DNA of 64,000 nucleotides. Origin: Promethearchaeia archaeon. Lineage in GTDB: Archaea; Asgardarchaeota; Lokiarchaeia; Sigyniarchaeales; SOKP01. The notes below the pieces were generated by a model. It was given only the letters and a program-made list of their open reading frames with translations. It did no database searches and was not told the DNA's origin. The DNA is taken from NCBI GenBank assembly GCA_029856045.1, contig JAHQWG010000025.1, positions 32,001 to 96,000 of the forward strand, given 5' to 3'. The translations under genes and the position numbers were made by a program. Positions 1,008-32,442 of the stretch are shown here, piece after piece. The number at the start of each line of letters is the position of its first letter. The first letter of the stretch is position 1.

Positions 1008-3302
1008 CTACACTTCTCTTCGTATTTCTTCTATCACAATAGCATATTTTTCAAGTAGTTTTATTAATTTCTTATTATCAGGAACGCTCTTTAATTTTTT
1101 TTCGTATTCTGGATAATATTTAATTAATTTATTATATAAAGAATTTAGAGATTCTTGTAAATCATTTTCTTTTTTGAAATTTTTAGAAATTGATTTTAAT
1201 GCATCTAAATGTTTTGGTTGTTCTAGGCAAGAAATTAATTTTTTATAATAGAGAATTATAATTTTTGAGTATTCTTCGGGATGGAAATTAACTAAATAAT
1301 CATCAATATCAAAATCCCAATGTGGTATAAAACTTATATATTTATCAACAGGATTTTCTTTATTATCTAAAAGATTTAATTCAAGATTTGATTTATTTAA
1401 CTTTTCCAATAAAGGATATAAAATACCGGGACTAACTTTTGTTTCTTGTTCAATTATTGGTGCAATGTCAGAGATTAATAGTCTATATTCTGGGTATTGT
1501 TCAGGGTTTTCAATCCGATATATATATTCGTTTTTAATTAAATTAATAATTTCATCTTCAAGAATCATATCACGTTCTTTTACAAATGAGACAGTTCTAT
1601 CCTTTATGGATTCAGTATGTTCTTGTTCCGATATAAGTTTTTTTGAAAAATCAGTTGAGAGAGATTGAATGAATTTATCTGAAGCTTTTTCTTTATCAAT
1701 TTTTTTTTGAAGTTGCATTGTATCACCAGGTTGCTTCTGAAGGGATTCTACTAGTTGTTCTGATAAATAATGTCTTGCTTTTTTAGCAGCTTTTCCTTTC
1801 TTTTGAAATTTTTCGGTAATTGAAGTGAATTCAGCATATTTTCTTTCTGTACCTTCTTTTTCTTGTCGGATTATTACTCTAAAATCAACTTTTTTATCAT
1901 CAATTTTGCGAATAATTGAATAAACAATTCCCTTAGATAATTGGGATGCCTTTATTAATTCAATTTCAATTAGATCAATTGGAAAGGCTTCACCCCTTCG
2001 AATAAATTCATTCCTCAAAATTTTTAATATTGTTTCTATACTTTTTTCTTCTTCTTTAACAATCTCTTTTTGAATTCGCATAAACATTGAAGTTTCATGA
2101 GGTTTTAAGTAATAAACTAAAATAGTTAATCCTAATAAGAAAATCATAATAATTGAAATTAGATAACGATCATGCGCTAATAATTCTGAAAATCCACCAA
2201 TTTCTTGGTTTGGAGCGCTAGTAGCTACAGCGAATCGTGATATGGTTTGTCCTAAAACACAAGCTAGAAAAAACATTATTAAACCATCTTTTTTAAAGAA
2301 TAAAATTCGCCATCCCAGAGTAGTACCAATTTTTCGTATTATTCTTACTAAAAATATCATTGAAATAATAAATTCAAAGAAAAATAGGTATCCGATTACA
2401 TTTGAAGCTCCACCAAAAGCTCCTTTTAACGCATCTGATGTTTCTGGTAGAAGAATTGTATATAATGTCACTTGGTAAATTTGATAAAAAAATATGAAAA
2501 AAACAATTATAGCAAATGTAAAATTATCAAATAATCCCGCTCTTCTGGTTTCTGCCCGCTTTCTAGTAAGAACGAATTCAATAATTATGAATACAATAGT
2601 TGTAATCAGTGAAATATATATTAATGGCATTACTCTTTTCATTTCAATCAGATAAACTTCAATTGATCCTATTGGATTTATAGTTCCCAAGAAATCTAGA
2701 GTGAGAAAAACAATAAAAGCTCTAAAAGACCAAGATATAATCACTAAAATTCCTAAAATTAGAAATGGAATTAAAAAGATTGCAAAATTTCTTATAACTG
2801 AATATTTTGCAACTACTTTTGCCTCAATTTTAGTAGAAAATTTTCTTGAATATGTATAAAATCTTGAACTTTGTAAAAATAGCCAGATCATCGCTAACAT
2901 TAAAAGAAAGCTCATATAATTTAATTGAAATATGGTGTCTATTAAGAAAAATAGAAAATAACATCCTGTAATTAATCCGAAAAAAATACCTATCTGCTTA
3001 ATAACAGTATTTTTTTCAAATATAAATTGCCTTATTTTATCCACGCTAAATAATATAGAGAGTGAAAAAAAAAATAAAATTAATGCATTTCCAAAAATAA
3101 AAGGGTTTCCAAACATCATAATTTGGAAAAAAAGATTATCTGGATTATTGATATTAAAAAAAATCATAAAAGAAAAATATAAAAAAATTCCAAATAATCC
3201 CCAAAATTTTTTTCCATAATAAGATTTTGGAGGTTCTTTCCCTTTTACATAAATCTCTTTATTAAAAATGACTTTTTTAAGATTTAAATAAATATTTTTC
3301 AT
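1008..3302 (-). CDS. Hypothetical polytopic membrane protein (about 10 TM segments) with a large soluble C-terminus containing two winged-helix-like repeats
   Basis: 764-aa ORF. The first ~400 aa are alternating hydrophobic helices; the C-terminal half is charged and carries an internal repeat. Confidence 0.8.
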   Translation of the reverse strand: MKNIYLNLKKVIFNKEIYVKGKEPPKSYYGKKFWGLFGIFLYFSFMIFFNINNPDNLFFQIMMFGNPFIFGNALILFFFSLSILFSVDKIRQFIFEKNTVIKQIGIFFGLITGCYFLFFLIDTIFQLNYMSFLLMLAMIWLFLQSSRFYTYSRKFSTKIEAKVVAKYSVIRNFAIFLIPFLILGILVIISWSFRAFIVFLTLDFLGTINPIGSIEVYLIEMKRVMPLIYISLITTIVFIIIEFVLTRKRAETRRAGLFDNFTFAIIVFFIFFYQIYQVTLYTILLPETSDALKGAFGGASNVIGYLFFFEFIISMIFLVRIIRKIGTTLGWRILFFKKDGLIMFFLACVLGQTISRFAVATSAPNQEIGGFSELLAHDRYLISIIMIFLLGLTILVYYLKPHETSMFMRIQKEIVKEEEKSIETILKILRNEFIRRGEAFPIDLIEIELIKASQLSKGIVYSIIRKIDDKKVDFRVIIRQEKEGTERKYAEFTSITEKFQKKGKAAKKARHYLSEQLVESLQKQPGDTMQLQKKIDKEKASDKFIQSLSTDFSKKLISEQEHTESIKDRTVSFVKERDMILEDEIINLIKNEYIYRIENPEQYPEYRLLISDIAPIIEQETKVSPGILYPLLEKLNKSNLELNLLDNKENPVDKYISFIPHWDFDIDDYLVNFHPEEYSKIIILYYKKLISCLEQPKHLDALKSISKNFKKENDLQESLNSLYNKLIKYYPEYEKKLKSVPDNKKLIKLLEKYAIVIEEIRREV

Positions 3303-3675: not shown

Positions 3676-4089
3676 TTATCTATTATCATTGAAAGGATGA
3701 TTCTTTAATATTTCTCTAATTTCTTCTTCTAGTTTTTTCGAAAAATCAGAATTTATGTTCTTCATAAACTCTAATTGTTTCCTAAAAAGCTCTCTCCTAA
3801 AATCTTGATTATTTACTCTATTCTTTACTTCATAATCACATGCCATCTGAAATGTAACATCATTAAATATCCAGTAAAGAAGTTCATTCAAATTTTGAGT
3901 TGTACTTCTTTCCCACTCTATTCCTCGTTCTACGACAACATAATGGTAATTTTTTTTATCTACTTCTATATGAGGATTACCAAAATCTCTGGTGCTACCA
4001 AATGTAGGAAGTAGATCTCTAGGAGCATTAATAATTCTAGCTATATCTGTTGTCTTTTTTCTTATGGTTGCTAAAGATAATATCTTCAT
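3676..4089 (-). CDS. Imm63-family polymorphic toxin immunity protein (orphan)
   Basis: PHIEVD..YHYVVVERG.E.ER.TT.NL.ELLYWIF.DVTF.MA.DYE..NR...DFRR.LF.KQLE matches the Imm63 family pattern as I recall it. Confidence 0.8.
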   Translation of the reverse strand: MKILSLATIRKKTTDIARIINAPRDLLPTFGSTRDFGNPHIEVDKKNYHYVVVERGIEWERSTTQNLNELLYWIFNDVTFQMACDYEVKNRVNNQDFRRELFRKQLEFMKNINSDFSKKLEEEIREILKNHPFNDNR

Positions 4090-4240
4090 AATTTGATTAT
4101 TTTATAAATTAATACTCTTTAATTAGAATATTCAATTATAAAATTTTATAATTAAAAAATTTAATATCCTTTTATATTTAAATAAACTTTCTGCTTTCTG
4201 AAAATAGGTAGTAGAATCATAATTAACAGCGGCATTAGAA

Positions 4241-5038
4241 ATGAAAATTGCAGTGGCTGGTAAGGGAGGAACAGGTAAAACACTTATTGCAGGAACACTA
4301 GCTAGATTATTTGCTCAAGATGGTTATAAGGTTCTAGCTATTGATAATGATTCATCTATGAATTTAAGTTATTCTTTAGGGATTGATGAATATATCCGTC
4401 AAAAGATAGTCCCAATAAAAGAAATGCTTGATCTTATAGAACAAAGAACGGGACAAAGACCTGGTGCAGCAAGTGGGGGGATATATAATATAAACCCTAA
4501 AGTTTCCGATATTCCTGATAAATATAAAATCTATGGACCTGATGGAGTTCAATTGCTTGTTGTTGGTTCAATTGAGGAACCAGCCACGGGATGTCTTTGC
4601 CCGGAAAATGTATTAATTAGAACTCTTCTTTATAATCTTTTTGTGCAAAGAAATGAAGCAATAATTGTGGATTTTGAAGCTGGATTAGAACATTTGGGAA
4701 GAGGTACTGGTAAGGGAATAGAGATCATGCTTATTGCAACAGAACCGTCAATAAAGTCAATAGAATTAACTCAACATATACTAAAATTGTCAAAAGGATT
4801 AGGAGTAAAAAACAATTTAATTGTATTGAATAAAATTATAGACAAAGCAGAATTAGAGATTATTACTAAAAAATTGAAAGAAATTGGATTAAATTCATTT
4901 CATGTTATTCCTTTTGACCCAGAAATTGGAAAAGCTGATTTAGAGGGGATTGCATCACTTGATTTTAATCCAAACTCAAAAGCCATTCTATCTATTCGAG
5001 ATTTATTTGGAAAATTAAAAGAATTCAAAAAAAATTAA
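4241..5038 (+). CDS. cooC: CooC/AcsF-type nickel-insertion ATPase (CO dehydrogenase / acetyl-CoA synthase maturation)
   Basis: Deviant Walker A GKGGTGKT, metal-binding GCLCP, and DFEAGLEHLGRGT signature. Confidence 0.92.
   Translation: MKIAVAGKGGTGKTLIAGTLARLFAQDGYKVLAIDNDSSMNLSYSLGIDEYIRQKIVPIKEMLDLIEQRTGQRPGAASGGIYNINPKVSDIPDKYKIYGPDGVQLLVVGSIEEPATGCLCPENVLIRTLLYNLFVQRNEAIIVDFEAGLEHLGRGTGKGIEIMLIATEPSIKSIELTQHILKLSKGLGVKNNLIVLNKIIDKAELEIITKKLKEIGLNSFHVIPFDPEIGKADLEGIASLDFNPNSKAILSIRDLFGKLKEFKKN
4268..4338 (+). repeat. 71-bp perfect direct repeat, copy 2 (inside intact cooC)
   Basis: Identical to 3492-3562. Confidence 0.95.
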
Positions 5039-5093
5039 TAGTAAAAAATTTATATATGAAAATTTGATTTTACAATATAGGGAAAATTTTTTT

Positions 5094-5357
5094 ATGAGCG
5101 AAGATAATTTAAAAATCCAAGAATATGTCAGAAAAGCGATAGAACTCTTATGTCAAAAGAACTTTTCAGATGTAGTTATATTAAGCTCTTATAAAATCAA
5201 TTCCGTTTTAAGAGAGTATTTTGGTGTAGATATTAAAGTGGATAGAATTGGTCGAATGCTTGCGAATATTGCCAAGCAAAATCAGTTAAAAAGACTTAAA
5301 ACAAATATTCCCAAATATTCCCTAAAGATCTCTCGTTTATCAAAACTTAAATTCTAG
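5094..5357 (+). CDS. Small basic hypothetical protein, possibly winged-helix; likely start is the ATG of MSEDN rather than the TTG at 5064
   Basis: ~87 aa with a helix-helix-helix-strand pattern (SYKINSVLREYFG...VDRIGRMLANIAKQNQLKRL..IPKYSL). Confidence 0.55.
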   Translation: MSEDNLKIQEYVRKAIELLCQKNFSDVVILSSYKINSVLREYFGVDIKVDRIGRMLANIAKQNQLKRLKTNIPKYSLKISRLSKLKF

Positions 5358-5379
5358 ATCTACCGAATTAAAAAAGAAG

Positions 5380-6795
5380 TTATATTTTTTTTACTTTCTT
5401 AATAGATTTTTGTAATGTTTCTAATTGAGAGGCCAATTTTTCAGTTTGTTCATTAATTACAGATAATCCATCCGAGATATTATTAATTTCCTCATTTAAG
5501 ATCTCGTTGAATTTGGTTGATATTGTATTAACTTTCTGATTTATTCCCGATATTGTTTTTTCCGTATTTTCATTTGAATTATTAACAATTTCAGTTTGTT
5601 TATTTACATCTTGAGTGATTTTTTCTTGAATTTTTTCCAAATCCTTAAAAATTTTTGAATTTTGTTTTATTTTTTCTCCAATTTCATTAATTTTTTGAGT
5701 AATATTCTCATTGATAATCTTGACAATGTCTTCAACGATAAGATCGATGTTCTCATTAATTTCTTTTGTAAGTTCAATTTCAGAATCTAATCTTTCTTGT
5801 ACTTGGTTTTTAATTTCCAACTTAAATTCTTCCATTTGAGTTGATAAGGTCTTTTCAAACCATTCTTCTACTTTTTTAATACCTAAATTTATTGAATTCT
5901 GCATAGTAGAAATAGTATTAGCTATAAAAGCTGAACTTTTTGAAGTACCAACTGTAATATCATGCGTCCATTTATTTATTTTGTCTTGAAATGTTGGTAA
6001 AAAATTGTCTTTAAGTTCTTGGGTGCCCTTCATATAACCATCTATAGTAGGCTTTAAGGGAGATTTCTCTTTTATTTCAACAATCTCTCCTTCAGTAGGT
6101 TTAGGAATTTCTTGAAGGTCTCCAATTTCATCATACTCTTTTATTATAATGGGACTTTCTTTTTGGGATTCTTCAACTAGATTTTTAATAATTTTGAAAA
6201 AATCTAAGGATTTTGAAGGCTCGAGTTCAACAACGATTTCATGATAATCACTTTTTTCACCTAATTGATAATTATCTAATCTGAAAGACTTAAACCCAAA
6301 AGAATCTTTTTTTCCCATTAGTGAATGATCAAATACAACTGCAAAGGCATCGGGTGTTCCTTCCTTTTGCCAAAATAAATGGTTTTTAATATCCATATTT
6401 GTAAAAATTAACCCTAATCTCGGGTGGCTATGATACCAACCAATTATAGACATTTTCTTTTCATTGGCCTCTTTATCAATAGAAGTAAATTTCTTGTAAT
6501 CTAGCTCATTAAATTCGACATCCATACCTGATCCATGATTTACCGGAACAGCTTCATAACAAATTAGATCTTTTCCTTTTTCTGCCTTTTTTCCGATACA
6601 AACACCTAGAGCTTCTACGCTTTTCTCAAGACCTTCGTTACCGAAGCGTAAAACATGAGAAATCATAGCAATATAAGCATCTGATTTTATTATTACTTTT
6701 CCTTCATGTGAAAAATCTTTATCAACTACTTTATCTTGAGAAAATCTTTTGCCAGGTGGCTTAAGTCCATTACTCGGAGGTGGTTCTGGAGACAT
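5380..6795 (-). CDS. MPN/JAB (Mov34) domain protein with long C-terminal coiled coil; JAMM Ser replaced by Thr
   Basis: EALGVCIG (catalytic Glu) and GWYHSHPRLGLIFTNMD (HxH-x7-T-x2-D), followed by ~220 aa of heptad-like sequence. Confidence 0.9.
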   Translation of the reverse strand: MSPEPPPSNGLKPPGKRFSQDKVVDKDFSHEGKVIIKSDAYIAMISHVLRFGNEGLEKSVEALGVCIGKKAEKGKDLICYEAVPVNHGSGMDVEFNELDYKKFTSIDKEANEKKMSIIGWYHSHPRLGLIFTNMDIKNHLFWQKEGTPDAFAVVFDHSLMGKKDSFGFKSFRLDNYQLGEKSDYHEIVVELEPSKSLDFFKIIKNLVEESQKESPIIIKEYDEIGDLQEIPKPTEGEIVEIKEKSPLKPTIDGYMKGTQELKDNFLPTFQDKINKWTHDITVGTSKSSAFIANTISTMQNSINLGIKKVEEWFEKTLSTQMEEFKLEIKNQVQERLDSEIELTKEINENIDLIVEDIVKIINENITQKINEIGEKIKQNSKIFKDLEKIQEKITQDVNKQTEIVNNSNENTEKTISGINQKVNTISTKFNEILNEEINNISDGLSVINEQTEKLASQLETLQKSIKKVKKI

Positions 6796-6798
6796 TTT

Positions 6799-8214
6799 TT
6801 AAGAACCTCCTTGATTTTTATCATTGATATCTTTTAATTTTTGAATATTATTAGACACTGTATCTAAGATTGAAATAGTAGAATCTAAAGAACTAATAGA
6901 ATCTTCTTGCTTCTTTTTAATTTCATTAATCTCCTTTATTAAAGGCTTTAGAGTTTTTTCTAATTGTTTTTTAATCTTTTCCGTGTTTGAATCTATTTCT
7001 TGCACCGTTTCATTACTTAGTTGATTAATTTTCCTGGAAACCTCATCAATTAATTTAGTATTTTGAATTATATGATTAGAGTTATTCTCATAACTAGATT
7101 TTAATGAAGTAAATTTTTGTTTACTGTTATTGATTAATGAATTTGTTTCATTAATTATTGCATTTATTTGTTCTGTGAATATTTTAGATGTATTCGATTC
7201 AATAGTATCTTTTAGTTGGTGGATTGAATTTTTTAATGCGGTTTTATTAATATCTAATGTATCTAATTTATCATCAATATATGTTTCCATATCTCTAAAT
7301 ATATCCATAATTGCAAATTTAGTCCAAGTGTGTAATTCCCTCAGACCAATTGATAGGTTATTCTTTAAGGTTATTAGATTTTCTCTAGTTTTTAGATTGA
7401 TATCAGTTGTTAATTTAGTCGTTTTTTGACCCCATTGGTTTAGATATCTAAATAATGGTTCAAAGAACGAATAAATAAATTTTGAAATACCATCATTCAA
7501 TGATTGCAATAATACCATTAAATTTAAATCAGGTTGTTTTGCCATAATTTGACTTTGACTGGGAATAGAAATTTCTCCAAAGATATCTGGAGTTTCATTA
7601 ATTTCTAAAATGACAGGTTCTTTTTTATGAATGTTATCTATTAAATTTTTAATTTCATGATAAAATCCAATATTATCAGGAGGTTCCACAACAAATTTTA
7701 CCTCATGATAACTAGTTGGTATTTCCGTAAAAGAAGGTTTATCTAATCGAAAAATTTTAAAACCCATATTTCCTTGCTTCTCTAATAGTTCATGATCGAA
7801 GACAATTCCAATTGCACTGGGATTTGGATTTTGAAATCCTAATTGATTTATGAGGTCAACTGCTGAAAAAAAGACGCCTAGACCAGGATGAGAGTGGTAC
7901 CAACCAACGGAAAACCACCCCTTATCAGCAACCTCTTGATCTACACTTGCAAAAGCTATATAATCGGCTTCTGCAAATTGTACTTCAATTTGACCTCCAT
8001 GATTTATTGGAATCGCATCTCTAACTATAACATCTTTAATTTCTCCAGAACCTTCTAATTCTCCTAATAACACACCCATACATTCACGGTAATTATCAGG
8101 ATCCTTAATTTTTGAACCAAACCGTAAAACATGAATAAGCATTTTATAATAAGCTAATGGTTTAATGATTACCTTCGAGTTATCAATGAAATTTTGCTTT
8201 TGTGTGTGTGCCAT
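6799..8214 (-). CDS. Rpn11/CSN5-like MPN+ (JAMM) metalloprotease with long C-terminal coiled coil
   Basis: ECMGVLLG and GWYHSHPGLGVFFSAVD (intact JAMM), followed by a coiled-coil C-terminus. Confidence 0.92.
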   Translation of the reverse strand: MAHTQKQNFIDNSKVIIKPLAYYKMLIHVLRFGSKIKDPDNYRECMGVLLGELEGSGEIKDVIVRDAIPINHGGQIEVQFAEADYIAFASVDQEVADKGWFSVGWYHSHPGLGVFFSAVDLINQLGFQNPNPSAIGIVFDHELLEKQGNMGFKIFRLDKPSFTEIPTSYHEVKFVVEPPDNIGFYHEIKNLIDNIHKKEPVILEINETPDIFGEISIPSQSQIMAKQPDLNLMVLLQSLNDGISKFIYSFFEPLFRYLNQWGQKTTKLTTDINLKTRENLITLKNNLSIGLRELHTWTKFAIMDIFRDMETYIDDKLDTLDINKTALKNSIHQLKDTIESNTSKIFTEQINAIINETNSLINNSKQKFTSLKSSYENNSNHIIQNTKLIDEVSRKINQLSNETVQEIDSNTEKIKKQLEKTLKPLIKEINEIKKKQEDSISSLDSTISILDTVSNNIQKLKDINDKNQGGS

Positions 8215-8411
8215 ATTTAAAACTTCTTAATTAATTAATCTCATTTTAATTTTCCTATACCAATATTATTTTTTGAGTTTTTATAATATTATCCAAATTC
8301 AATTATTATTCCAATTAGCTGTGTTTAATAAAAATTTAATATTAATTTTAAGGATATTATTTAGATTTATAACACCGAAAGTTAATATTAAAAAAAACTT
8401 TAAAAAGAGTA

Positions 8412-9089
8412 TTAATTGTAGTCCTTGAATTCCTTTCCACAACTTGGGCAATGCTTTATCTGAAATCCACAGAAAGGACAAAAAATCTTTCCCAAAGTTT
8501 GTTTTTTTAAATCTTCTGTTTCAGCAGTATCTTTAGATGGAATCTTGGGAAGTTCTTTCTCAGTTGAAATTATTTTAGGAGCTTCTTCTTGAATAATTGA
8601 TTCTTTTTCAACATTAAGTTTTTTAGAAATTGCTTTAGCTTTTGTTCTTTGGAGAAAGTGTTCACGTTCCGATAATTCCGGAATATGTTCTTTAACCCAC
8701 CCTTGAGCTTTAACCCTTTTTAATTCTGATTCTGGAACTTTCTCTAACTGTACTTCCTTTATTTCTTGAATTGGAGCTATAACTTTCTTCTTATCTTTAT
8801 TCTCCTTTGCCTGTCTCAATAAAAATTGAGTTGTTTTCATGATTTGATGAGGATTGATATTTGGGATTGCAACTGTTTTGAGGACCCAACTAACGATATG
8901 ATTTCCATTAGGTATATCTTGGTCTACATTGTCGTAAATATAAGAATCTATAATTGTATCTTTTCCTTTCATTAATCTAGATGCCCATTTTTCATTAATC
9001 ATTCCTAATTGTAATCTGTAGGAAGTCCCAGCAATTCCAAGCTGAGAAGTGAGTGGTTCAAAATCTTTTTCTGACATGATTTTACCCAA
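8412..9089 (-). CDS. Hypothetical protein with C-terminal zinc ribbon
   Basis: C-terminal CPFCG..IKHCPSCG; globular N-terminal region and a charged linker. Confidence 0.75.
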   Translation of the reverse strand: MGKIMSEKDFEPLTSQLGIAGTSYRLQLGMINEKWASRLMKGKDTIIDSYIYDNVDQDIPNGNHIVSWVLKTVAIPNINPHQIMKTTQFLLRQAKENKDKKKVIAPIQEIKEVQLEKVPESELKRVKAQGWVKEHIPELSEREHFLQRTKAKAISKKLNVEKESIIQEEAPKIISTEKELPKIPSKDTAETEDLKKQTLGKIFCPFCGFQIKHCPSCGKEFKDYN

Positions 9090-9405
9090 AATGAATTTTA
9101 TTAATGATATAAATTATTTTTCTATTTTTATAATTTATTCAAAATTATTATATCTTTATAATTTTTGACTGAAATTTTGTTTATGTTTAAATATAAAATT
9201 GATGAAATTTTTTAATATTAAAATTCTCTATAGTTGTTGATATTTTACAGAAATGATATTTTTTATATTATGTCGATTCTCTCCTTATATTTAAAAAGAA
9301 TATTCCCCTAAATGTTAATGCTACAATAAATATTCTTAAATATTGTGGAACTTCTAAAATCAATGGAATTAAAAAGAATAATTTGTATTTTTATTAAGGG
9401 AGAGT

Positions 9406-12400
9406 ATGAAAAAATTGGAAGATTTTAATGAAAATGATGAGGATTTCAGTTTAATCGATTTATACCCAAAATATGTAATCAATTCTAAAGGAATACTTAA
9501 GGATTTTGATATAGCATATGTAGCAAGATCAATTAATAGAGAAACCGGATTGGAATTAGAAACTTGCGAAGTAATTGCTCAGGAGGTTCTACGAAAAATA
9601 ATCGGGCAAGGGTTAAAAAGAGTTTCTACCAATTATATTAGGGAGATAGTATGCCTTGAATTAACTGCAAGAGGATTAGAAAAATTTAGAAACATTTATG
9701 CTCGTTATATTAACATTAGTATGACCAAATTCTCTTTAGATGTGGATTTCATTGAAAAATTTAAAGAAATTCATCCAAAATGGGGTCCCTTAGGTTATAT
9801 TACTTATAAGAGAACTTATGCAAGATATATCGAAAAAGAAAATCGAAAAGAAGAATTCTGGGAAACACTGAAAAGGGTTGTTGAAGGATGTTTCTCAATT
9901 CAAAAAGAGCATTGTGTAAAATTAGGATTACCTTGGAATGAAGATAAAGCTCAAAAATCTGCTCAAATAATGTTTCAAAAAATGTGGAATTTTAAATTTA
10001 TTGCTCCAGGTCGTGGATTATGGATAATGGGAACCCCATTTATTGACCGACACGGAAGTATGGCCCTTAATAATTGCGGTTTTGCCTCAACTGAGGATAT
10101 TGATATTAAAGGGACGATTCCATTTGAATGGACAATGGATGCATTAATGCTGGGTGTTGGTGTTGGATTTGACACAAAAGGGGCAGGAAAAATAATTATT
10201 AAGAAACCTAAAAAAGATGATTTTCTATTTCGCATTCCAGATAGCAGAGAAGGATGGGTTGAAGCACTAAAATATACTTTAGAGGCATATTTTTTTGAAA
10301 AAACCATACCAAAATTGGATTATTCCTTAATAAGACCGGCGGGGGAATTAATTAGAGGATTTGGAGGAATCGCCTCTGGACCAGAACCGCTTGAAAAAAT
10401 GATTGAAAACATTAAAGATCTTTTAAACCAACGTATTGGAGATAAACTTCGTTCAACAGATATAGTCGATATCATGAATTTTATTGGCAAATGCGTAGTT
10501 GCCGGGAATGTCCGCCGGAGTGCTGAAATAGCCCTTGGAGATATAAATGATACGGAATTTATAACTATGAAGCAAGATAAGGAGAAATTAACGTCCCACC
10601 GCTGGGCGAGTAATAATTCAATATTTGCAAAAATAGGTATGGACTATTCATTTGTGGCTGAACAAATTGCAAAAAATGGTGAGCCAGGTGTATTATGGTT
10701 AGAAAATTCAAGAGCTTATTCAAGAATGGCTGAACCCCCCGATTATAAAGACAAAAAAGTGGCTGGTGTAAATCCTTGTATTACAGGAGATACTTTAATA
10801 GCGGTTGCAGATGGTCGGAACGCTGTATCAATTAAGCAGTTAGCTGAAAAAGGATTGGATGTACCTGTTTATTGCAGGGACAATAATGGCAGAATTGTTA
10901 TAAGAATAATGCGGAATCCAAGAATTACAAGGATAAATGAAGAAATATATGAAGTCAAATTAGATGATGGAAGTCAAATAAAATGTACGGGTGATCATAA
11001 ATTCATTTTAAAAGATATGAGCGAAAAGGAAGCTAAAGATTTACGAAAAGGTGACTCCCTTATGATTATGGCAAAATGGCAAACATCTTGGGATGAAATG
11101 ATGGGAAGTGAGCGTAAGGAGAAAAAAACAATTTATTGGATGATAAATGACGGGAGAAAAAATATTTTTGAACATACATTTATTTTTGAGTCGTATTATA
11201 ATAAAAAGGTACCTAAGAACCATGTAATACACCATAAGGATAACATTGGAACTAATAATGATATAAAAAACCTGGAGATGATGTCGAAGGAAGAACATGA
11301 TTTATTACATGATATATCTGGCGATAAAAACCCAATGCGACGATGGTGGAGCAAGGCTTCGAAAGAGGAGAAAAGGAGATATAGAGAGAGTATGTCGAGA
11401 GCGGTTTCTGGGGAAAAAAACCCACGATATTCGGGATATTCAGATGATTTGATATATAATGAAATGGTTAATTTAATTAAACGGAATGGAGCACCATTAT
11501 CTAGCGGAATATGGAGAAAGCATGCAAAAAAGATTGGAATGCCATTTACATCCCCAAGATGGGGTCATACTCAAACTCCTACTAATTTAATGAAACGTGC
11601 TAATATTGAGTGTGGGTATGAATATCAAAAAGATCCTGTTTCTAGAAGGGAATACAATAGATTTATTAAGCTATTAAAAAGTTCTGACTTAAAACTATCT
11701 TTTGAAAAAGGTATAATTTATGTAGAAAAAAAATGTGAGGGATGTGGAAATTCATTTAAGATAAAATATTCTAATAGAGAACAAGCTTATTGTTCAAGAC
11801 CTTGCTTATTACGATCAATACATGATAAAGGACAAGAAGCTCTTAAGAAGAAATATAAAAAAATTCGAAAAAAAAAGCAAGAGTTGATTTTTAAATTATT
11901 AATTAAGGAAATTTCTTTAAAGAAAAAAATTCCTTCAAAACACGATTTCCTGAAAATTTTAAGAGAGAATGGAATTGCTGACTTTCGAAGTGCTGGTATG
12001 TCTGATAGTTATGCGTACATCCTCGATCAAATTACTGAGAACTTTAAAACAATTAAAGTAGATTCTAAAAAATTATCGCGTGATGAAGGCTATGCAAAAT
12101 TAGTTGCTAGTAGATGGATTGAAAATGGAGTAAATTATAACCATAAAATCGTATCTGTCAAGAAGATTGGAATAGGAAATGTCTTTAATGGAACGGTGGA
12201 TGAATTTCATAATTTTGGAATTGTTTTAGATGAGAAAAAGACTAAATCTGAAAGAATTAAATTGGAAATAATATTTACAGCGAATTGTGGAGAACAGAGC
12301 CTTGAATCATATGAGCTATGCTGCTTGGTGGAGTCCTTTCCTTCAAATCATGAATCCTACGAGGAGTTTCAAGATACGCTAAAATATGCATATCTTTATG

Positions 12401-13176
12401 CAAAATCAGTTACTTTATTAAATACACATTGGAAGCAAACAAATGCAATTATGGGCAAAAACAGAAGAATTGGCACTTCCCAATCGGGAATAATTAATGC
12501 CTTTATTAAACATGGGCGTAGGGAAATATTTAAATGGTGTGAAAAAGGTTACAAATACTTAAAGGAGTTGGATTCAAAATATTCAGATTGGCTAACTACC
12601 CCTAAGTCAATTAAGATGACTTCAATAAAGCCCAGTGGCAGTGTAAGTTTACTTCCGGGAGTAACTCCAGGAATACATTATCCGCATTCTGAATATTACA
12701 TACGTAGGATTCGCTTTAATGAAAATTCAGATTTGCTTCCATTTCTTAGAGAAGCCGGATATGAAATTCACACAGATAAATACTCTCCCAACACAAGCGT
12801 TGTAGAATTCCCTATTCATGAGGAATATTTTGAAAGGGCAAAGAAAGACGTATCGATGTGGGAACAGTTAGAAAATGCTGCTGCATACCAGAAATATTGG
12901 GCTGATAATCAAGTGTCCATCACAGTTACTTTTAAAGAAAAAGAAGCAAAAGAGATTAAAGTTGCTTTAGAAATATTCGAAGATAAGTTGAAAGGAGTTA
13001 CATTCCTTCCCTTGAATGAACACGGTTATGAACAAGCTCCTTATGAAGAAATTACACAAGAACAGTATCATGAAATGAAATCGAAATTAAAACCACTCAA
13101 CCTGAGTACAGTTAAAAGTGAAGCACTGGGTGAAAGATTTTGTGATGCAGATTTCTGTGAGATTAAATTCAAATGA
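9406..13176 (+). CDS. nrdJ: Class II (adenosylcobalamin-dependent) ribonucleotide reductase, monomeric RTPR-like, with N-terminal ATP-cone and one intein
   Basis: YKRTYAR, PGRGLW, LNNC, GVGVGFD, VVAGNVRRSAE, NP|CGE split by the intein, KPSGSVS, DNQVSITV and C-terminal CDADFC cysteine pair. Confidence 0.95.
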   Translation: MKKLEDFNENDEDFSLIDLYPKYVINSKGILKDFDIAYVARSINRETGLELETCEVIAQEVLRKIIGQGLKRVSTNYIREIVCLELTARGLEKFRNIYARYINISMTKFSLDVDFIEKFKEIHPKWGPLGYITYKRTYARYIEKENRKEEFWETLKRVVEGCFSIQKEHCVKLGLPWNEDKAQKSAQIMFQKMWNFKFIAPGRGLWIMGTPFIDRHGSMALNNCGFASTEDIDIKGTIPFEWTMDALMLGVGVGFDTKGAGKIIIKKPKKDDFLFRIPDSREGWVEALKYTLEAYFFEKTIPKLDYSLIRPAGELIRGFGGIASGPEPLEKMIENIKDLLNQRIGDKLRSTDIVDIMNFIGKCVVAGNVRRSAEIALGDINDTEFITMKQDKEKLTSHRWASNNSIFAKIGMDYSFVAEQIAKNGEPGVLWLENSRAYSRMAEPPDYKDKKVAGVNPCITGDTLIAVADGRNAVSIKQLAEKGLDVPVYCRDNNGRIVIRIMRNPRITRINEEIYEVKLDDGSQIKCTGDHKFILKDMSEKEAKDLRKGDSLMIMAKWQTSWDEMMGSERKEKKTIYWMINDGRKNIFEHTFIFESYYNKKVPKNHVIHHKDNIGTNNDIKNLEMMSKEEHDLLHDISGDKNPMRRWWSKASKEEKRRYRESMSRAVSGEKNPRYSGYSDDLIYNEMVNLIKRNGAPLSSGIWRKHAKKIGMPFTSPRWGHTQTPTNLMKRANIECGYEYQKDPVSRREYNRFIKLLKSSDLKLSFEKGIIYVEKKCEGCGNSFKIKYSNREQAYCSRPCLLRSIHDKGQEALKKKYKKIRKKKQELIFKLLIKEISLKKKIPSKHDFLKILRENGIADFRSAGMSDSYAYILDQITENFKTIKVDSKKLSRDEGYAKLVASRWIENGVNYNHKIVSVKKIGIGNVFNGTVDEFHNFGIVLDEKKTKSERIKLEIIFTANCGEQSLESYELCCLVESFPSNHESYEEFQDTLKYAYLYAKSVTLLNTHWKQTNAIMGKNRRIGTSQSGIINAFIKHGRREIFKWCEKGYKYLKELDSKYSDWLTTPKSIKMTSIKPSGSVSLLPGVTPGIHYPHSEYYIRRIRFNENSDLLPFLREAGYEIHTDKYSPNTSVVEFPIHEEYFERAKKDVSMWEQLENAAAYQKYWADNQVSITVTFKEKEAKEIKVALEIFEDKLKGVTFLPLNEHGYEQAPYEEITQEQYHEMKSKLKPLNLSTVKSEALGERFCDADFCEIKFK
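10777..12285 (+). mobile_element. Intein (503 aa) with HNH-type homing endonuclease, in the NPC active-site motif of NrdJ
   Basis: Block A CITGDTLIAVADG, block B CTGDHKF, HNH HVIHHKDNIGTNNDIKNL, NUMOD3-like SGDKNPM and SGEKNPRY, block F VFNGTVDEFHNF, C-terminus IFTAN followed by Cys. Removal restores AGVNP-CGEQSLESYELC. Confidence 0.93.
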
Positions 13177-16694: not shown

Positions 16695-16721
16695 TTATAT
16701 AAAAATATTGAGTGAAAAAAA

Positions 16722-18479: not shown

Positions 18480-18505
18480 ATAGTTAAACAAAAAGTGGAT
18501 TATTT

Positions 18506-19669: not shown

Positions 19670-19850
19670 AAAAGAAGTCTTTCTTTCTCAAAAGTATTGA
19701 ATAACCTTAAGATAGAATAAAAATTAAAAATTTGATTCATAAATCATTTTTAAATAATGAGATAAATATCGTTTGGTTTATAAGGAATTACAAAAAATAA
19801 AAAATGAAATTTTCAAGAATTCATAATTTACAACTTAAAAGGTATTAGAA

Positions 19851-21008: not shown

Positions 21009-21042
21009 TTAAAAAATTGCAATGATCAAAAAAGGATAAAAA

Positions 21043-23607: not shown

Positions 23608-23622
23608 GAATAAGTTCATAAG

Positions 23623-27890: not shown

Positions 27891-28838
27891 ATGACAGTTA
27901 TTATTCCAAAAAAAGCATATTTAACAATTGTTGCATCAGCAGTTAGATTTGCTAATGCACGAATACCAAAAGATGATTGGTTGGAAGTTAGTGGTGTAGT
28001 AATTGGTAAGAATGTTGGTGATGATGTGTTAATCTCAGCCGTATATCCAATCATGCATCAAGAATTAGATAAGGATGCAGTGATTGATCAATATAAATGG
28101 AAAGATGAAGATTATGAAGCACTGTCTATAATTGATGATGAGGCATTTTCGAGAGAAGAATTCACCGTTGGATGGTTTCATAGTCACCCCGGTTTTAAAG
28201 TAATGATGTCACATATCGATATCAGAACAACATTAAGCTATCAAACAAATAATCCTTTAGCGATTTCATTAGTATTTAACCATATGAGATTAATAAAACA
28301 AATCGAATTGCCTGATAAAAAAGGAGACCCTGATATCCCTTTAGAAAACGATCCGGGTTTTAAAATTTTTCGATTAGATGAAGTAAGAGGAATTGAAGCA
28401 AGTTATCATCCTATCGATTTTAAAATAGAAGGATATGAGAGTATACAACAATTAATTCAAACAACCCAAGCTTTTGTTGTCGATGTAACAAATATACTCC
28501 CTAAAGAAGGCTTAATCGAGTCATATCAGAATCAAGTGAATAAATCAATAGAGGAATTAAATTCTCAATTAATTGGAACAGAGGAATATCTCAAAACACT
28601 TGCAAGAGAGGGAGCAACTTCGAGGATTCCAGAAGTTCTTTTGAACCAAACTAGGGATATAAATAAATTTGTTGAAAGAGTAAATAAAAAAATTGAGAAA
28701 ATGAAAGAATTCTTAGATTACTTAGAGTATAAAGAAAGAGAATTAATTTTACATCAAGTTTTAGACGTAATTAATCAATGGGAACAAAAAGTAGAAAATT
28801 TAGAAACTGATTTACGTGTATTATCTCAGAAATTTTAA
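27891..28838 (+). CDS. Third MPN+ (JAMM) protein with shorter C-terminal coiled coil
   Basis: EVSGVVIG, GWFHSHPGFKVMMSHID, GFKIFRLD. Confidence 0.9.
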   Translation: MTVIIPKKAYLTIVASAVRFANARIPKDDWLEVSGVVIGKNVGDDVLISAVYPIMHQELDKDAVIDQYKWKDEDYEALSIIDDEAFSREEFTVGWFHSHPGFKVMMSHIDIRTTLSYQTNNPLAISLVFNHMRLIKQIELPDKKGDPDIPLENDPGFKIFRLDEVRGIEASYHPIDFKIEGYESIQQLIQTTQAFVVDVTNILPKEGLIESYQNQVNKSIEELNSQLIGTEEYLKTLAREGATSRIPEVLLNQTRDINKFVERVNKKIEKMKEFLDYLEYKERELILHQVLDVINQWEQKVENLETDLRVLSQKF

Positions 28839-28971: not shown

Positions 28972-31173
28972 ATGAAAAAAATCAATTTTCCTTTTACGGC
29001 GATAATAGGGCATGAAAAAATGAGAATTGCATTAATTCTCAACGTTATTGATCCTTTTATTGGAGGTGTTCTTTTATCAGGTCATCGTGGTACAGGAAAA
29101 TCTACAGCAGTCCGTTCTCTTATAGATATAATGCCCGAAATCAAAGTTATAAAAGAATGCTCTTTTAATTGTGATCCTGATTCTAATCTTGAAGATTTAT
29201 GTGAGATTTGTCTTGAAAAAGTCAAAAGTAGCAACTTTGAAGTAGAAATAAGACAGATGAAACTTGTTAATCTTCCATTAGGGGCTACAGAGGATATGGT
29301 TTGTGGAAGCTTGGACATAGAACGAGTCTTAGCGGAAGGAATAAGAAGCCTTCATGCTGGTTTATTAGCAAAAGCACATAGAGGGATTTTATATATAGAT
29401 GAGGTAAATCTTTTACAAGATCATATAGTAGATACGCTATTGGATGCTTCTGCATCAGGGGTAAACATCATTGAGAGAGAAGGAATTTCAGTAATGCATC
29501 CTTCAAGATTTATTTTAGTTGGTTCAATGAATCCAGACGAGGGAGATTTACGACCCCAGATTGCAGATCGTTTTGGTTTAGAAGTAAAAATTGTAGCACC
29601 TTCAGATCCAAAAGTAAGAGCTGAAATTACTAAAAGAGTCATAGATTTTTATGATAATCCGAAAGAATTCATTATACAATATCAAAATAACCAAAAACAA
29701 TTAAAACAGAGAATAATTCAAGCCCGAATGATATTGAAAGATGTAAAAGTTTCTGACCGAATTTTCCAATTTGTATCAGAAGTTGTAAGTGAATTAGGTA
29801 TTTTTTCACAGAGAGCTGATATTTCATTTATTCGGTGTGCTCGAGCAAATGCAGCTTTTAATAATAGAACTTATATTCTAAATGAGGATTTAGAAATTGC
29901 TTTAGATCTTGTTTTTGAGCATAGGATGGAATCAATTGATGCAACAATGACAGCAAAAGAGATAAAAGGCAAAATTATCGATGCTTATGGAAAAATTCAA
30001 GAAGCCTATGAGAACTTAGACGTTTACAAACCAAATGAAGAGACTGAAGGTCCTTTAAAATCCACTGATGAACCACAAGAGCAGTTTAAAAGAAATCCAA
30101 TAGATAAAGATAAAATTAATTTACCAGAAACTAAAGAACAAAAACTTCCTCCTCCAAAAGAAGAGGATAAAAACCATAAATATGATCCTGCAGGTGGTTG
30201 GAAAGTTAAGAGATTGCCATCTAAGGAATTTTATAATAATAGAGAAGATAAACCTATTAATTTGCAAAAATTTGCATATAAATTGGAGGATAAGATAATT
30301 TCAATTTTGAACAACATCAGAAATACTAAGAGAATATCAAATTTTGGTGGTCGAGGCGTAGGAAACAGAACAAGATTTACTTCAAGCAAAAAGGGGCATT
30401 ATAGTTCTTTCCGAAGACCACTAGAATATCCTAGAAATATAGCATTAGATGCTTCTATTAGAAGCTATTTAAAAAATTTGACCTATAATCCTACTAAAAT
30501 TGAATTTCCATTAAAATTAGATAAAACTGATATAATGGAAAAGGTTTTTGAATTTAAAGCACCTTTAGCTTTATTCTTTATTTTAGATGCTTCCGCATCT
30601 ATGTATAGTGTTTTAAAGCAAATGACAAATGTAATCGAGGCACTCCAGAGAGAAGGTTATAAGAAAAAGGATAAAATATGTATTATTATGTTCCGTGGTA
30701 AAGATGCGATTGTACTTCAAAAACCAACTGTCGCATTAAGAAATGCACTTAGTAAAATCAAAAATATTGAAGGTAAATCATATACACCCATGGCTTTTGC
30801 ACTAAATAAATGTTTGGAGATGATAAACATTGAGAAAATGAGAAACCGAAACATTTTTCCTGTCATATTTATTTGTAGCGACTGTGGTGCAAATATCTCT
30901 TATACTCATCCTGATCTAGTTGCTCAAATTGAATCAGACTATAATTTGATTACTAAGGAATTAAAAGATATTGCAAAAATTATAGCAAAAAGAAAAATAA
31001 AAGTGGTAATATTAGAACCCAGAAAATCTTGGGCTACAAAAAATTTGGGAATTCATCCATTTTCCGCAGAAGAAATAAAAAAGAATTTTAGACAATACTG
31101 TAAAGCAGATATTTTTAAATTCAATGAGATTGACCCAACCCAAACAATCCTTAAATTAAAGAGAGTTCTTTGA
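28972..31173 (+). CDS. ChlI/ChlD-like chelatase subunit (AAA+ module, Pro/acidic linker, VWA)
   Basis: FPFTAIIG, GHRGTGKST, NLPLGATED, GLLAKAHRGILYIDEVNLL, MNPDEG, DRFG, and VWA DASAS. Confidence 0.9.
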   Translation: MKKINFPFTAIIGHEKMRIALILNVIDPFIGGVLLSGHRGTGKSTAVRSLIDIMPEIKVIKECSFNCDPDSNLEDLCEICLEKVKSSNFEVEIRQMKLVNLPLGATEDMVCGSLDIERVLAEGIRSLHAGLLAKAHRGILYIDEVNLLQDHIVDTLLDASASGVNIIEREGISVMHPSRFILVGSMNPDEGDLRPQIADRFGLEVKIVAPSDPKVRAEITKRVIDFYDNPKEFIIQYQNNQKQLKQRIIQARMILKDVKVSDRIFQFVSEVVSELGIFSQRADISFIRCARANAAFNNRTYILNEDLEIALDLVFEHRMESIDATMTAKEIKGKIIDAYGKIQEAYENLDVYKPNEETEGPLKSTDEPQEQFKRNPIDKDKINLPETKEQKLPPPKEEDKNHKYDPAGGWKVKRLPSKEFYNNREDKPINLQKFAYKLEDKIISILNNIRNTKRISNFGGRGVGNRTRFTSSKKGHYSSFRRPLEYPRNIALDASIRSYLKNLTYNPTKIEFPLKLDKTDIMEKVFEFKAPLALFFILDASASMYSVLKQMTNVIEALQREGYKKKDKICIIMFRGKDAIVLQKPTVALRNALSKIKNIEGKSYTPMAFALNKCLEMINIEKMRNRNIFPVIFICSDCGANISYTHPDLVAQIESDYNLITKELKDIAKIIAKRKIKVVILEPRKSWATKNLGIHPFSAEEIKKNFRQYCKADIFKFNEIDPTQTILKLKRVL

Positions 31174-31194
31174 TCAATAATGATTTAAATTTAT

Positions 31195-32442
31195 TTGAAG
31201 ATGATTAATAAAAAAAAGAAAGTTCTTATCTCAGGTTTTAATGCTCGACCTTTATCTAAATCGTTATATAATTCAAATTATGAAGTATATGCTGTAGATT
31301 TTTTTGGAGATTCAGACTTATTTCCTTATATTAAGGATGCTTTAATTATTACTAAAGAATTGAAAACCAATTTTCAAAAATTAAAATTCATTTACAGTAA
31401 TGTTTTAACGGATTTAACCCTTCAAATGATTGAGAAATATCCCTATTTAGATTATTTAATAATAGCAAGTGGTTTAGACGATAATATTATTGGGCGAGAA
31501 AAAATTTTTAAGAAAATTAAGAAATTAAATCATCCAATTCGATATTTAGGTAATAATATAAACCAAATTATAAAGGCAAGAGATATCTTAAGTATTAATT
31601 TAATTTTAGAACAAATGGGATACAAAGTTCCTAAGACTTTAACTTTTAATTGTGATTTAATTGATAATAATCTAATAAATTATCCAATTATTTTGAAAAA
31701 AAAACAAAGCTCTGGCGGTTTAAATATTTTTAAAATTAATTCTAAAGCTCATTTATTAAGTATTGTTAAAAATAATGAAGAATTTGATGAAAATTCTGAA
31801 AATTGGTTATTTCAAGAGTACATAGATGGAATTGATGTTAGTTGCACGACGATCAGCAATGAAGTTGATGCAAAAATTATTTCAATAAATGAGCAGTTAA
31901 TTGGAAAAGAATTTTTAAATGCACCAAGTGAATTTATATATTGTGGTAACATTGTTCCTGCAGATCTTAATTTTTCTCTTCAGAATAAAATTTCAGAAAT
32001 TTCATTAAAATTAGTTAAACATCTTAACCTAATTGGAATAAATGGGTTTGATTTTGTATTAAAAAATGGATGCCCATATTTAATGGAAATAAATCCTAGA
32101 ATCCCAGGTTCGATAAATGCAGCAGAAGTTGCACTGAAAAGAAATTTAATTGATGAACATATTAATTGCTGCTTAAATCCAGATAAAGAAATTATAATTT
32201 CAAATCTAGATATTAATACTAATTTTGTCTCAAAATTTATTTATTTCGCTCCAAAGTTGATTTCTTATCACAAAATTGAGAAGTTAAAGCAAATTATTAA
32301 TGTGGAAGATATTCCAGCGCCAGGTAGAGATATTCAACCATTTGAACCATTATGTTCTATTTTATATAAAGCAGATAACTACTCAAAAGCATATAAGGGA
32401 GCATTGAGTATAGTAGAATCGATAGAATTACTGATAAAATAA
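31195..32442 (+). CDS. ATP-grasp fold ligase (COG2232-like archaeal type)
   Basis: RPLSKS, AVDFFGDSDL, KKKQSSGG, QEYIDG, NGFDF, MEINPRIPGS. Confidence 0.82.
   Translation: MKMINKKKKVLISGFNARPLSKSLYNSNYEVYAVDFFGDSDLFPYIKDALIITKELKTNFQKLKFIYSNVLTDLTLQMIEKYPYLDYLIIASGLDDNIIGREKIFKKIKKLNHPIRYLGNNINQIIKARDILSINLILEQMGYKVPKTLTFNCDLIDNNLINYPIILKKKQSSGGLNIFKINSKAHLLSIVKNNEEFDENSENWLFQEYIDGIDVSCTTISNEVDAKIISINEQLIGKEFLNAPSEFIYCGNIVPADLNFSLQNKISEISLKLVKHLNLIGINGFDFVLKNGCPYLMEINPRIPGSINAAEVALKRNLIDEHINCCLNPDKEIIISNLDINTNFVSKFIYFAPKLISYHKIEKLKQIINVEDIPAPGRDIQPFEPLCSILYKADNYSKAYKGALSIVESIELLIK

Follow-up and report, generated by a model that had tools for sequence, protein, structure and literature searches.

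The window analyzed here, a stretch of 64,000 nucleotides from a Promethearchaeia archaeon (assembly GCA_029856045.1, contig JAHQWG010000025.1, positions 32,001 to 96,000 of the forward strand), contains two abutting genes, A and B, that encode related MPN-domain proteins, each with a long helical tail. The genes, their domains and the junction between them lie on the minus strand, as follows.

6799..8214, minus strand: gene A, 471 amino acids (P0001), an MPN+ protein with an intact JAMM motif; MPN domain at residues 14-197, linker at 198-243, helix at 244-466.
7624..8175, minus strand: MPN/JAMM domain of A, residues 14-197, with E44, H107, H109, S117 and D120.
6817..7485, minus strand: predicted hendecad stalk of A, residues 244-466, about 33 nm long if straight (a single helix in the AlphaFold2 model).
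6805..6810, minus strand: GGAGGT, Shine-Dalgarno-like, inside the last codons of A, with the ATG of B 9 nucleotides downstream.
5380..6795, minus strand: gene B, 471 amino acids (P0002), a paralogue of A with a nearly intact JAMM motif (from its open reading frame, Pfam JAB, and clade and motif statistics).
5383..6024, minus strand: predicted hendecad stalk of B, about residues 258-471.

A first-pass annotation of this DNA had described two co-oriented MPN genes of 471 codons, 3 nucleotides apart, and the open reading frames, the Pfam JAB matches and the AlphaFold2 model bear out this description. The spacer (6796-6798) lies between the TAA stop of A (6801-6799) and the ATG of B (6795-6793), and the junction reads CAA GGA GGT TCT TAA, AAA, ATG. 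A Shine-Dalgarno-like site in the last codons of an upstream gene is the usual picture of translational coupling, and A and B are probably a translationally coupled, abutting pair. The two proteins share 31% identity across 457 residues, tails included (E 6e-60), which identifies them as paralogues. Two paralogous MPN subunits encoded together, as found here, are characteristic of MPN+/MPN- heterodimeric isopeptidases.

Both proteins belong to the JAB/MPN superfamily (Pfam JAB, PF01398; 52.7 bits for A and 46.8 bits for B, with a cut-off of 22.5). A contains the complete JAMM motif of MPN+ proteins (E ... HxH x7 S xx D), with E44 followed by WYHSHPGLGVFFSAVD (H107, H109, S117, D120). The motif of B, E61 followed by WYHSHPRLGLIFTNMD (H122, H124, T132, D135), is incomplete in that Thr132 takes the place of the Ser, and B carries in addition a Pro-rich N-terminal extension (MSPEPPPSNGLKPPG); the motifs and the extension are as they were first quoted. 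The Ser-to-Thr change is common to all three genomes of the window's genus that were read. In an AlphaFold2 model of A built from a 63-sequence alignment (mean predicted local distance difference test score, pLDDT, 76.9), the MPN domain (pLDDT about 90) is followed by a low-confidence linker and an unbroken helix of moderate confidence. By sequence, the nearest solved protein is the Rpn11 homologue of Caldiarchaeum (CsRpn11; 6FJU, E 1e-11), followed by Rpn11, CSN5 and BRCC36. By structure, the nearest to the model of A (Foldseek, E about 1e-12) are BRCC36 (6gvw_B, 8.8e-13), Rpn11 (4o8x_B, template modelling score, TM, 0.74), CSN5 (E about 5e-9) and CsRpn11, the first three being MPN+ members of heterodimers. 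Comparison with the eukaryotic proteins Rpn11, CSN5, BRCC36 and Rpn8 was made through profile scores against PDB sequences, in place of a joint tree. MPN+ proteins score highest with the profiles of both families, and the B-family profile gives Rpn11 54 bits, CSN5 45 bits and Rpn8 28 bits; CsRpn11 has a profile score of 59 bits. The MPN domains of A and B are thus of the Rpn11/CSN5/BRCC36/CsRpn11 type, whose characterized members cleave after the C-terminus of ubiquitin-like proteins (PMC6043591). Assignment to the archaeal stand-alone JAMM desampylases (HvJAMM1 type; NCBIfam NF041370) was rejected at 16.6 bits for A and 20.6 bits for B, against a cut-off of 130, and a small single-domain JAMM protein does not describe two chains of 471 residues with stalks of more than 200 residues. 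Ten candidate short MPN proteins from a representative search matched JAB only, without a CSN5_C or MitMem_reg domain.

The distribution of the pair was examined in a phylum sample of 150 genomes from 27 families and in a second sample of 121 genomes of the window's family (E<=1e-30). Full-length matches to A and B were found in all 25 genomes of the window's family within the phylum sample, and the other 26 families of that sample contained MPN-domain-level matches only, with no full-length A or B. In the second sample, matches were found in 113 of 121 genomes, in 35 of the 36 high-quality genomes and in all 13 genera, mostly as exactly two matches per genome. Full-length homologues on this scale indicate that A and B are genes rather than chance open reading frames. 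Of the 21 loci read from end to end, 20 have A ahead of B, the two being separated by -8 to +13 nucleotides. The pair is conserved throughout a single family of the 27 sampled. Two apparent fusions of A and B, a frame of 981 residues in genome G227 and one of 941 residues in genome G152, were each resolved into two separate open reading frames, with a stop and a 6-nucleotide gap in G227. Among the best 80 of 137 related loci, all are from metagenome-assembled genomes and none is from a cultured organism. The window's own genome (3.34 Mb, 55 contigs) encodes five MPN-plus-extension paralogues, namely A, B, a protein called M3 that is encoded elsewhere in the window, and two on other stretches of the genome. 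These last two, both intact MPN+ paralogues, lie at L003 916-2067 (minus strand; 383 amino acids, with a Lys/Glu-rich helical tail) and at L004 1411-2997 (plus strand; 528 amino acids, acidic at the N-terminus and TPR-like in the C-terminal region).

A tree of 240 sequences (FastTree, rooted on M3) contains an A clade of 152 rows and a B clade of 53 rows, with Shimodaira-Hasegawa-like support of 96 and 97, respectively. A and B are shown to be sister genes, arisen by duplication within the window's lineage and produced from one abutting gene pair. The active sites of the two clades have fared differently. The E, H, H, S and D of the JAMM motif are all kept in 147-149 of 149 members of the A clade, and the zinc triad in 149 of 149. 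In the B clade, all five residues are present in 7 of 51 members; 18 of the 51 retain the zinc triad and 33 have lost it, with many different replacements at each position. Pairs of the G008 and G030 type are examples with a B whose site is predicted to be dead. The suggestion that one subunit was drifting from the consensus therefore proved apt: it is B, which behaves like an MPN- partner across the relatives. In a tree of the B clade (IQ-TREE, rooted on A), the window's genus and P0124 form the first branch, followed by P0125 and P0126, and these sites read EHHSD, or EHHTD in the window's genus. Losses are confined to a crown of 45 rows, with at least seven zinc-triad changes on the tree. 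Because the earliest B branches have intact sites, the ancestral B appears to have been an intact enzyme, and the window genome keeps nearly that pre-decay state. A subunit without a catalytic or zinc site is thus found in most relatives, but not in the window genome, whose B has kept the triad and the Glu.

Substitution rates within the genus were estimated from three genomes of about 92% identity, with small counts. The ratio of nonsynonymous to synonymous rates (dN/dS) was 0.18-0.28 for A and 0.36-0.41 for B over the whole gene, 0.13 and 0.49, respectively, over the MPN half, and 0.26 and 0.22 over the tail; B appears to be still under selection. Family-wide alignments show the predicted zinc isopeptidase site of A to be strictly conserved and the site of B to be dispensable across the family, while the fold, linker motif and exact stalk length of B are kept.

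In each protein the MPN domain is followed by a conserved linker and then by one helix of about 215-225 residues. The tails had been annotated as more than 200 residues of coiled coil after a linker; the long helix is supported by the AlphaFold2 model for A, but the heptad type is not, as the hydrophobic period of both tails, in family profiles and in single sequences, is 3.62-3.67 (3.62-3.64 for the stalk of A). Spectral power peaks at 3.62-3.66, and at 3.50 it is 10.8 in A, compared to 137.7 at the peak, and 6.5 in B, compared to 136.1. We rejected a canonical, left-handed heptad coiled coil, given that the period of 3.5 is nearly powerless and that fixed core columns appear when the sequences are written in rows of 11 residues. 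There are three such columns over about eleven repeats in both tails. A and B share the same hendecad register, as well as a phase shift (about 377-388 in A, about 381-403 in B) after which further 11-residue repeats follow. Residues I, L, V, F, M, W and Y make up 31% of the tails and N, Q, S and T about 35%, with hardly any Ala, Gly or Pro. With three core positions per 11 residues and a narrow hydrophobic stripe, the tails are best described as predicted hendecad rods of the coiled-coil type, as opposed to heptad coiled coils or broad-faced lipid-binding helices.

The latter type of helix would imply a different role for the tails, in which they lie on a membrane or lipid surface, like those of apolipoproteins or perilipins, and bring the MPN heads there without forming a dimerization stalk. 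The 11-residue period would fit such helices, and there are weak profile matches to apolipoprotein A-IV, apolipoprotein A-I and apolipophorin-III (E 1e-9 to 1e-4), weak Pfam matches to Apolipoprotein, Perilipin and Phasin, and a conserved multi-pass membrane protein encoded downstream. We nevertheless consider this role very improbable. With only three hydrophobic positions in every 11 residues, the stripe is narrow and recalls hendecad coiled coils, not a broad lipid-binding face; Ala and Gly are scarce, and the Pro-punctuated 22-residue repeats are absent. All of these family matches fall far below their cut-offs and could arise from composition alone, and the same profiles also match coiled-coil stalks, namely those of chemoreceptors and spike HR1, beside the ZorA tail. 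We likewise rejected the tail matches to Apolipoprotein, Perilipin, ZorA and SMC-like families as assignments, and read them as composition and periodicity only.

About 165 columns of the tail are free of insertions and deletions in both the A and B families. Measured from a conserved Trp (Trp276 in B) to the C-terminus, the tail has 211 residues in A and 196 in B here. Across 21 genomes, it ranges from 195 to 199 residues in B, at about 30% sequence identity, and from 211 to 269 in A. The proposal of matched-length coiled coils is not sustained by these values, and the equal totals of 471 residues are a coincidence, the difference in tail length being offset by the N-terminal extension of B. 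A strict length constraint is seen on one chain only, that of B.

Structure prediction of the full-length A and B chains together, with alignments, gave a complex score of 0.56 (runs of 0.56, 0.57 and 0.54), compared to 0.00 for the best of three controls; at least 59% of contacts were common to the runs, and the partner pLDDT was at least 65. In calibration, 58 of 80 solved complexes passed the mark, as did 2 of 110 mismatched pairs, counts that hold here only roughly since we used our own alignments. Scores of 0.60 or below were obtained for 7 of those 80 complexes and for both of the passing mismatches, so that a pass in this band is more often wrong than right unless the pairing was a likely guess beforehand. 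For A and B the prior appears good, as they are coupled paralogues with the MPN+/MPN- pattern. The heteromer would be the most economical reading of the pair, and the modelling lends it weak support. The prediction does not separate A-B pairing, as proposed in the first-pass annotation, from A-A or B-B pairing.

We favor, with a probability of roughly 0.55, the reading that A and B serve as the two subunits of a single stalked isopeptidase complex of the MPN type, specific to one family of uncultured Lokiarchaeia-type Asgard archaea. The two chains would pair side by side via their MPN domains, and also via a two-stranded hendecad coiled coil of about 30 nm, probably right-handed or straight. 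A would be the cutting subunit, freeing proteins of a ubiquitin-like modifier or of some other tag linked through its C-terminus; its catalytic residues are invariant, which suggests that catalysis matters. B would position or activate A, in the manner of Abraxas with BRCC36 and of Rpn8 with Rpn11. The stalk, together with a constantly linked zinc-ribbon protein, c1, could tether the catalytic head or space it relative to something else. In the window's genus, the complex may still have two working or half-working sites, given that the metal ligands and Glu of B are intact and that only the Ser has changed, to Thr.

Several observations weigh against a single complex of this kind. The B of the window retains all metal ligands, so that the logic of an enzyme with a dead partner is not yet realized here, and two independent active enzymes in the window genome are possible. 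In one genome, G141 (L039, G141:C10:42000-61900), A and B lie 6 kb apart with seven open reading frames between them; strict coupling is therefore not obligatory, and the abutment can be broken without loss of either gene. The tail of A is 15-70 residues longer than that of B, and variable, which implies that the stalks are not simply matched. The complex score lies in the weak band, may in part reflect solved MPN heterodimers already known to the model, and does not distinguish A-B from A-A or B-B pairs. Genes for ubiquitin-like proteins, E1 or E2 are linked to A and B in none of the 21 loci, leaving the MPN type as the sole tie between the pair and ubiquitin-like modifiers. Finally, one salt-marsh metatranscriptome contained two contigs of 151 nucleotides with at least 99% identity, both inside A (7718-8062), and had no match elsewhere in 5300-9200; these two contigs are too little for a claim about transcription, co-transcription or habitat.

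Some of these observations would be expected if A and B were two separate enzymes, each with its own homo-oligomeric stalk and with different substrates or places of action, that are neighbors through tandem duplication and common regulation. Both proteins retain metal ligands and the catalytic Glu in the window genome, and the early B branches P0124, P0125 and P0126 are fully intact. CsRpn11, the closest sequence match among solved structures, crystallized as a homodimer (PMC6043591), and three further MPN-plus-tail paralogues stand alone in the genome. The split pair of G141 and the inability of the complex prediction to tell hetero- from homo-pairing also agree with separate enzymes. We still judge separate enzymes unlikely. 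Repeated loss of the B site while the fold, linker and exact tail length are retained is hard to explain for a stand-alone enzyme, and the near-universal abutting order of A then B (-8 to +13 nucleotides), with the Shine-Dalgarno-like GGAGGT found here, points to equimolar co-production.

If A and B do form one complex, its possible substrates are encoded elsewhere in the genome. Neither the window's contig nor any of the 21 neighborhoods has the CsRpn11-type arrangement in which the JAMM protein is encoded with a ubiquitin-like protein, E1 and E2, and in some cases E3. Searches with PF00240, PF00179 and PF00899 gave no match on the window's contig, which extends to the whole contig the earlier statement that no ubiquitin, E1 or E2 gene is visible in the window. 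On other contigs of the genome there are a ubiquitin-family gene (C34, 37.5 bits), an E2 gene (C47, 87 bits) and five ThiF-type E1-like genes. UFM1-like and SAMP/ThiS-like proteins of the genome are further candidate substrates. The genes that do accompany A and B are different ones. Beyond the pair noted in the first-pass annotation, the locus has a third constant operon member, c1, and a wider conserved neighborhood, whose components in the window are as follows.

8412..9077, minus strand: c1, zinc-ribbon protein, 221 amino acids counted from the ATG; immediately upstream of A, in the same orientation, in all 21 loci.
5064..5357, plus strand: c2, 97 amino acids, convergent on B; kept in 20 of 21 loci; no family match.
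1008..3302, minus strand: c3, multi-pass membrane protein with a soluble C-terminal half, 764 amino acids (about 770 across loci); located downstream of A and B and oriented like them in 18 of 21 loci.
27891..28838, plus strand: M3, the third MPN+ paralogue, 315 amino acids, with an intact JAMM motif and a shorter helical tail.
28972..32442, plus strand: genes after M3, encoding a ChlI/ChlD-like protein with AAA+ and von Willebrand factor A (vWA) domains (733 amino acids; 734 across loci), then an ATP-grasp ligase (415 amino acids).

Across the 21 loci, the layout comprises a divergent operon (ATP-grasp, AAA+-vWA, M3), the main operon (c1, A, B), c2 convergent on B, and, downstream in the same direction, c3 and a major facilitator superfamily transporter. 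The order M3, AAA+-vWA, ATP-grasp is conserved in relatives and mostly divergent from the c1-A-B operon, with M3 in most relatives about 0.15-0.25 kb from the start of c1 and about 1 kb upstream of A. In the window genome the M3 operon is displaced, about 19 kb away. The AAA+-vWA protein matches TIGR02442 with 565 bits, below the cut-off. An MPN protease encoded beside an ATP-grasp ligase could be a tag-removing and tag-adding pair.

This neighborhood bears on what the complex would act upon. The complex could be real and its substrate not ubiquitin-like, in which case A would trim another peptide or isopeptide tag, such as amino-acid tails added by the ATP-grasp ligase beside M3, or the complex would be mainly a structural spacer with catalysis secondary. 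Such a role is consistent with 21 neighborhoods that lack genes for ubiquitin-like proteins, E1 or E2 and have instead, as conserved neighbors, the zinc-ribbon protein c1, the membrane protein c3, and M3 together with the AAA+-vWA protein and the ATP-grasp ligase, and the fixed length of the B stalk suggests a ruler-like structural role. We find it improbable, however, because the characterized members of the Rpn11/CSN5/BRCC36/CsRpn11 type cut after the C-terminus of ubiquitin-like proteins (PMC6043591) and the catalytic residues of A do not vary; moreover, the ATP-grasp link is one of neighborhood only and is broken in the window genome by the displacement of the M3 operon.

The linked protein c1, with a mean column identity of 60%, exceeds both A and B in conservation and is separated from A by an AT-rich spacer of 197 nucleotides. 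It consists of a highly conserved N-terminal domain, with the motifs VPESELKRP..GW and LPxIP, and a C-terminal CPxCG..CPxCG ribbon. The N-terminal domain (about 100 amino acids, pLDDT 80-89) has no clear structural match in Foldseek (best E 0.16), and with VIA-align the best hit, to a designed protein, has Z 6.5 and PH-like folds have Z 4-4.7, all within noise; in the Atlas, c1 falls in its own Asgard cluster only. IP-containing motifs resembling LPxIP are also present in the A linker (ISIP) and the B linker (DLQEIP). For c3, there is no Pfam or NCBIfam match, and the Atlas contains its own cluster only, with structural rows at TM <= 0.21.

The known design closest to A and B is that of BRCC36 with Abraxas or with ABRO1 (KIAA0157), the cores of BRCA1-A and BRISC. 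There, an MPN+ isopeptidase is joined to a paralogous MPN- scaffold, and a coiled coil that follows the MPN domain in both contributes to assembly (PMC7692841). In structure, too, the A model matches BRCC36 best (6gvw_B, E 8.8e-13). The BRCC36 complex includes a vWA subunit, MERIT40 (PMC7692841), and a vWA protein is encoded in the conserved A/B neighborhood as well; here, however, it is fused to a ChlI-type AAA+ domain, is linked to M3, and is tied to the pair by neighborhood only. The two systems differ further in that they are not orthologous (Rpn11 receives 54 bits from the B profile, and the pair is confined to a single archaeal family), in that BRCC36 and Abraxas have short coiled coils in a four-helix bundle and A and B a hendecad helix of about 200-225 residues, in that no UEV partner was found for A and B, and in that B is not dead in the window genome.

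Next closest are Rpn11-Rpn8, from the lid of the 26S proteasome, and CSN5-CSN6 of the COP9 signalosome, which follow the same MPN+/MPN- logic and have MPN sequences and folds among the closest to those of A and B. Both sit in horseshoes of PCI subunits, with their short C-terminal helices in a helical bundle. A and B differ in having no linked PCI gene, a predicted 30-nm stalk and an independent duplication. Pfam PCI matches do exist elsewhere in the genome, the best at 42.8 bits (C36:78966-79133, in a 788-amino-acid protein, L063 436-2802, minus strand) and weaker ones on C47 and C36. None is linked to A or B, and the PCI model also matches in 4 of 14 control prokaryotes, so the match on C36 may be only a winged helix.

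Among archaeal proteins, CsRpn11 of Caldiarchaeum subterraneum (PDB 6FJU/6FJV) is an Rpn11-type JAMM that processes archaeal ubiquitin (PMC6043591), and it is the best PDB sequence match to the pair (E 1e-11; profile 59 bits). It has about 200 amino acids, is encoded beside a Ub-E1-E2-RING operon and acts without an MPN- partner, whereas A and B are long-stalked, each has a paralogous partner, and no ubiquitin-like cascade is linked to them. According to Fuchs et al. (2018), the organization of MPN heterodimers was not known in archaea (PMC6043591), and we found no description of an Asgard MPN+/MPN- pair in the full-text literature, where coverage of subscription journals is poor. The tails also resemble right-handed hendecad stalks, such as the peripheral stalks of rotary ATPases, in having an 11-residue repeat over a long rod and two related chains, and the tail of A weakly matches the sequence of the chloroplast ATP synthase b' subunit (E 0.008). 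This likeness is one of periodicity, with no homology shown.

Common descent with the eukaryotic pairs, in which B would be orthologous to Rpn8, CSN6 or Abraxas, is not what we found. The B profile scores Rpn11 far above Rpn8, the linker and tail are shared by A and B alone, and the pair occurs in one family of 27, which together suggest a lineage-specific duplication. The comparison with eukaryotic MPN pairs made in the first-pass annotation accordingly stands as a parallel in design and not as one of ancestry (54 compared to 28 bits): the pair looks like a duplication that parallels the eukaryotic design, and not a forerunner of Rpn11/Rpn8. As membership by descent fails, the resemblance would be a convergence on a working principle.

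To our knowledge, all large JAMM deubiquitinases of eukaryotes operate as MPN+/MPN- pairs, and we know of no account of the origin of such pairs that is inferred from anything other than end states. Asgard archaea are the closest prokaryotic relatives of eukaryotes. The family described here appears to offer the MPN+/MPN- design in Asgard archaea as a simple two-gene unit, with all intermediate stages of B: the second site is intact in the window's genus, lacks single residues in others and is gone entirely in still others. With these stages at hand, the birth of a pseudoenzyme partner could be tested with recombinant proteins. We propose, more tentatively, that this Asgard family built an active MPN protein and a decaying MPN twin independently of eukaryotes, mounted on a rigid hendecad stalk, heterodimeric and about 30 nm long, that acts as a molecular ruler and fixes the distance from head to anchor, with c1 and c3 as candidate anchors and the window's genus representing the ancestral stage with two metal sites. 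We regard this combined proposal as possible rather than probable. If it is true, the family would be a living series from double enzyme to enzyme and pseudoenzyme. The architecture itself, a predicted catalytic head borne by a stalk some 30 nm long, with the stalk length of B strictly fixed, is unusual, and the pair would be a parallel invention, in lineages represented by uncultured carriers among the best 80 of 137 loci, and not an ancestor of the eukaryotic complexes.

The remaining features near the pair are as follows.

9406-13176, plus strand: class II (B12-dependent) ribonucleotide reductase, with an inserted intein that carries an HNH endonuclease domain.
13318-25995, plus strand: block with an Mre11-like phosphoesterase, a Rad50-like ATPase, a HerA helicase, a 387-amino-acid protein (possibly NurA), a MoxR AAA+ protein, an 854-amino-acid vWA protein and a 790-amino-acid orphan.

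In the window's genus, the ribonucleotide reductase gene and the Mre11/Rad50/HerA block separate c1-A-B from the M3 operon. Between c2 and c3 (3676-5038) lie genes for a homologue of the Imm63 immunity protein (PF15599, E 1.9e-22) and a ParA/MinD-like ATPase. Among the 21 loci, the ATPase occurs in the window's genus only and Imm63 in the window genome only, an instance of a polymorphic-toxin immunity family in an Asgard archaeon.

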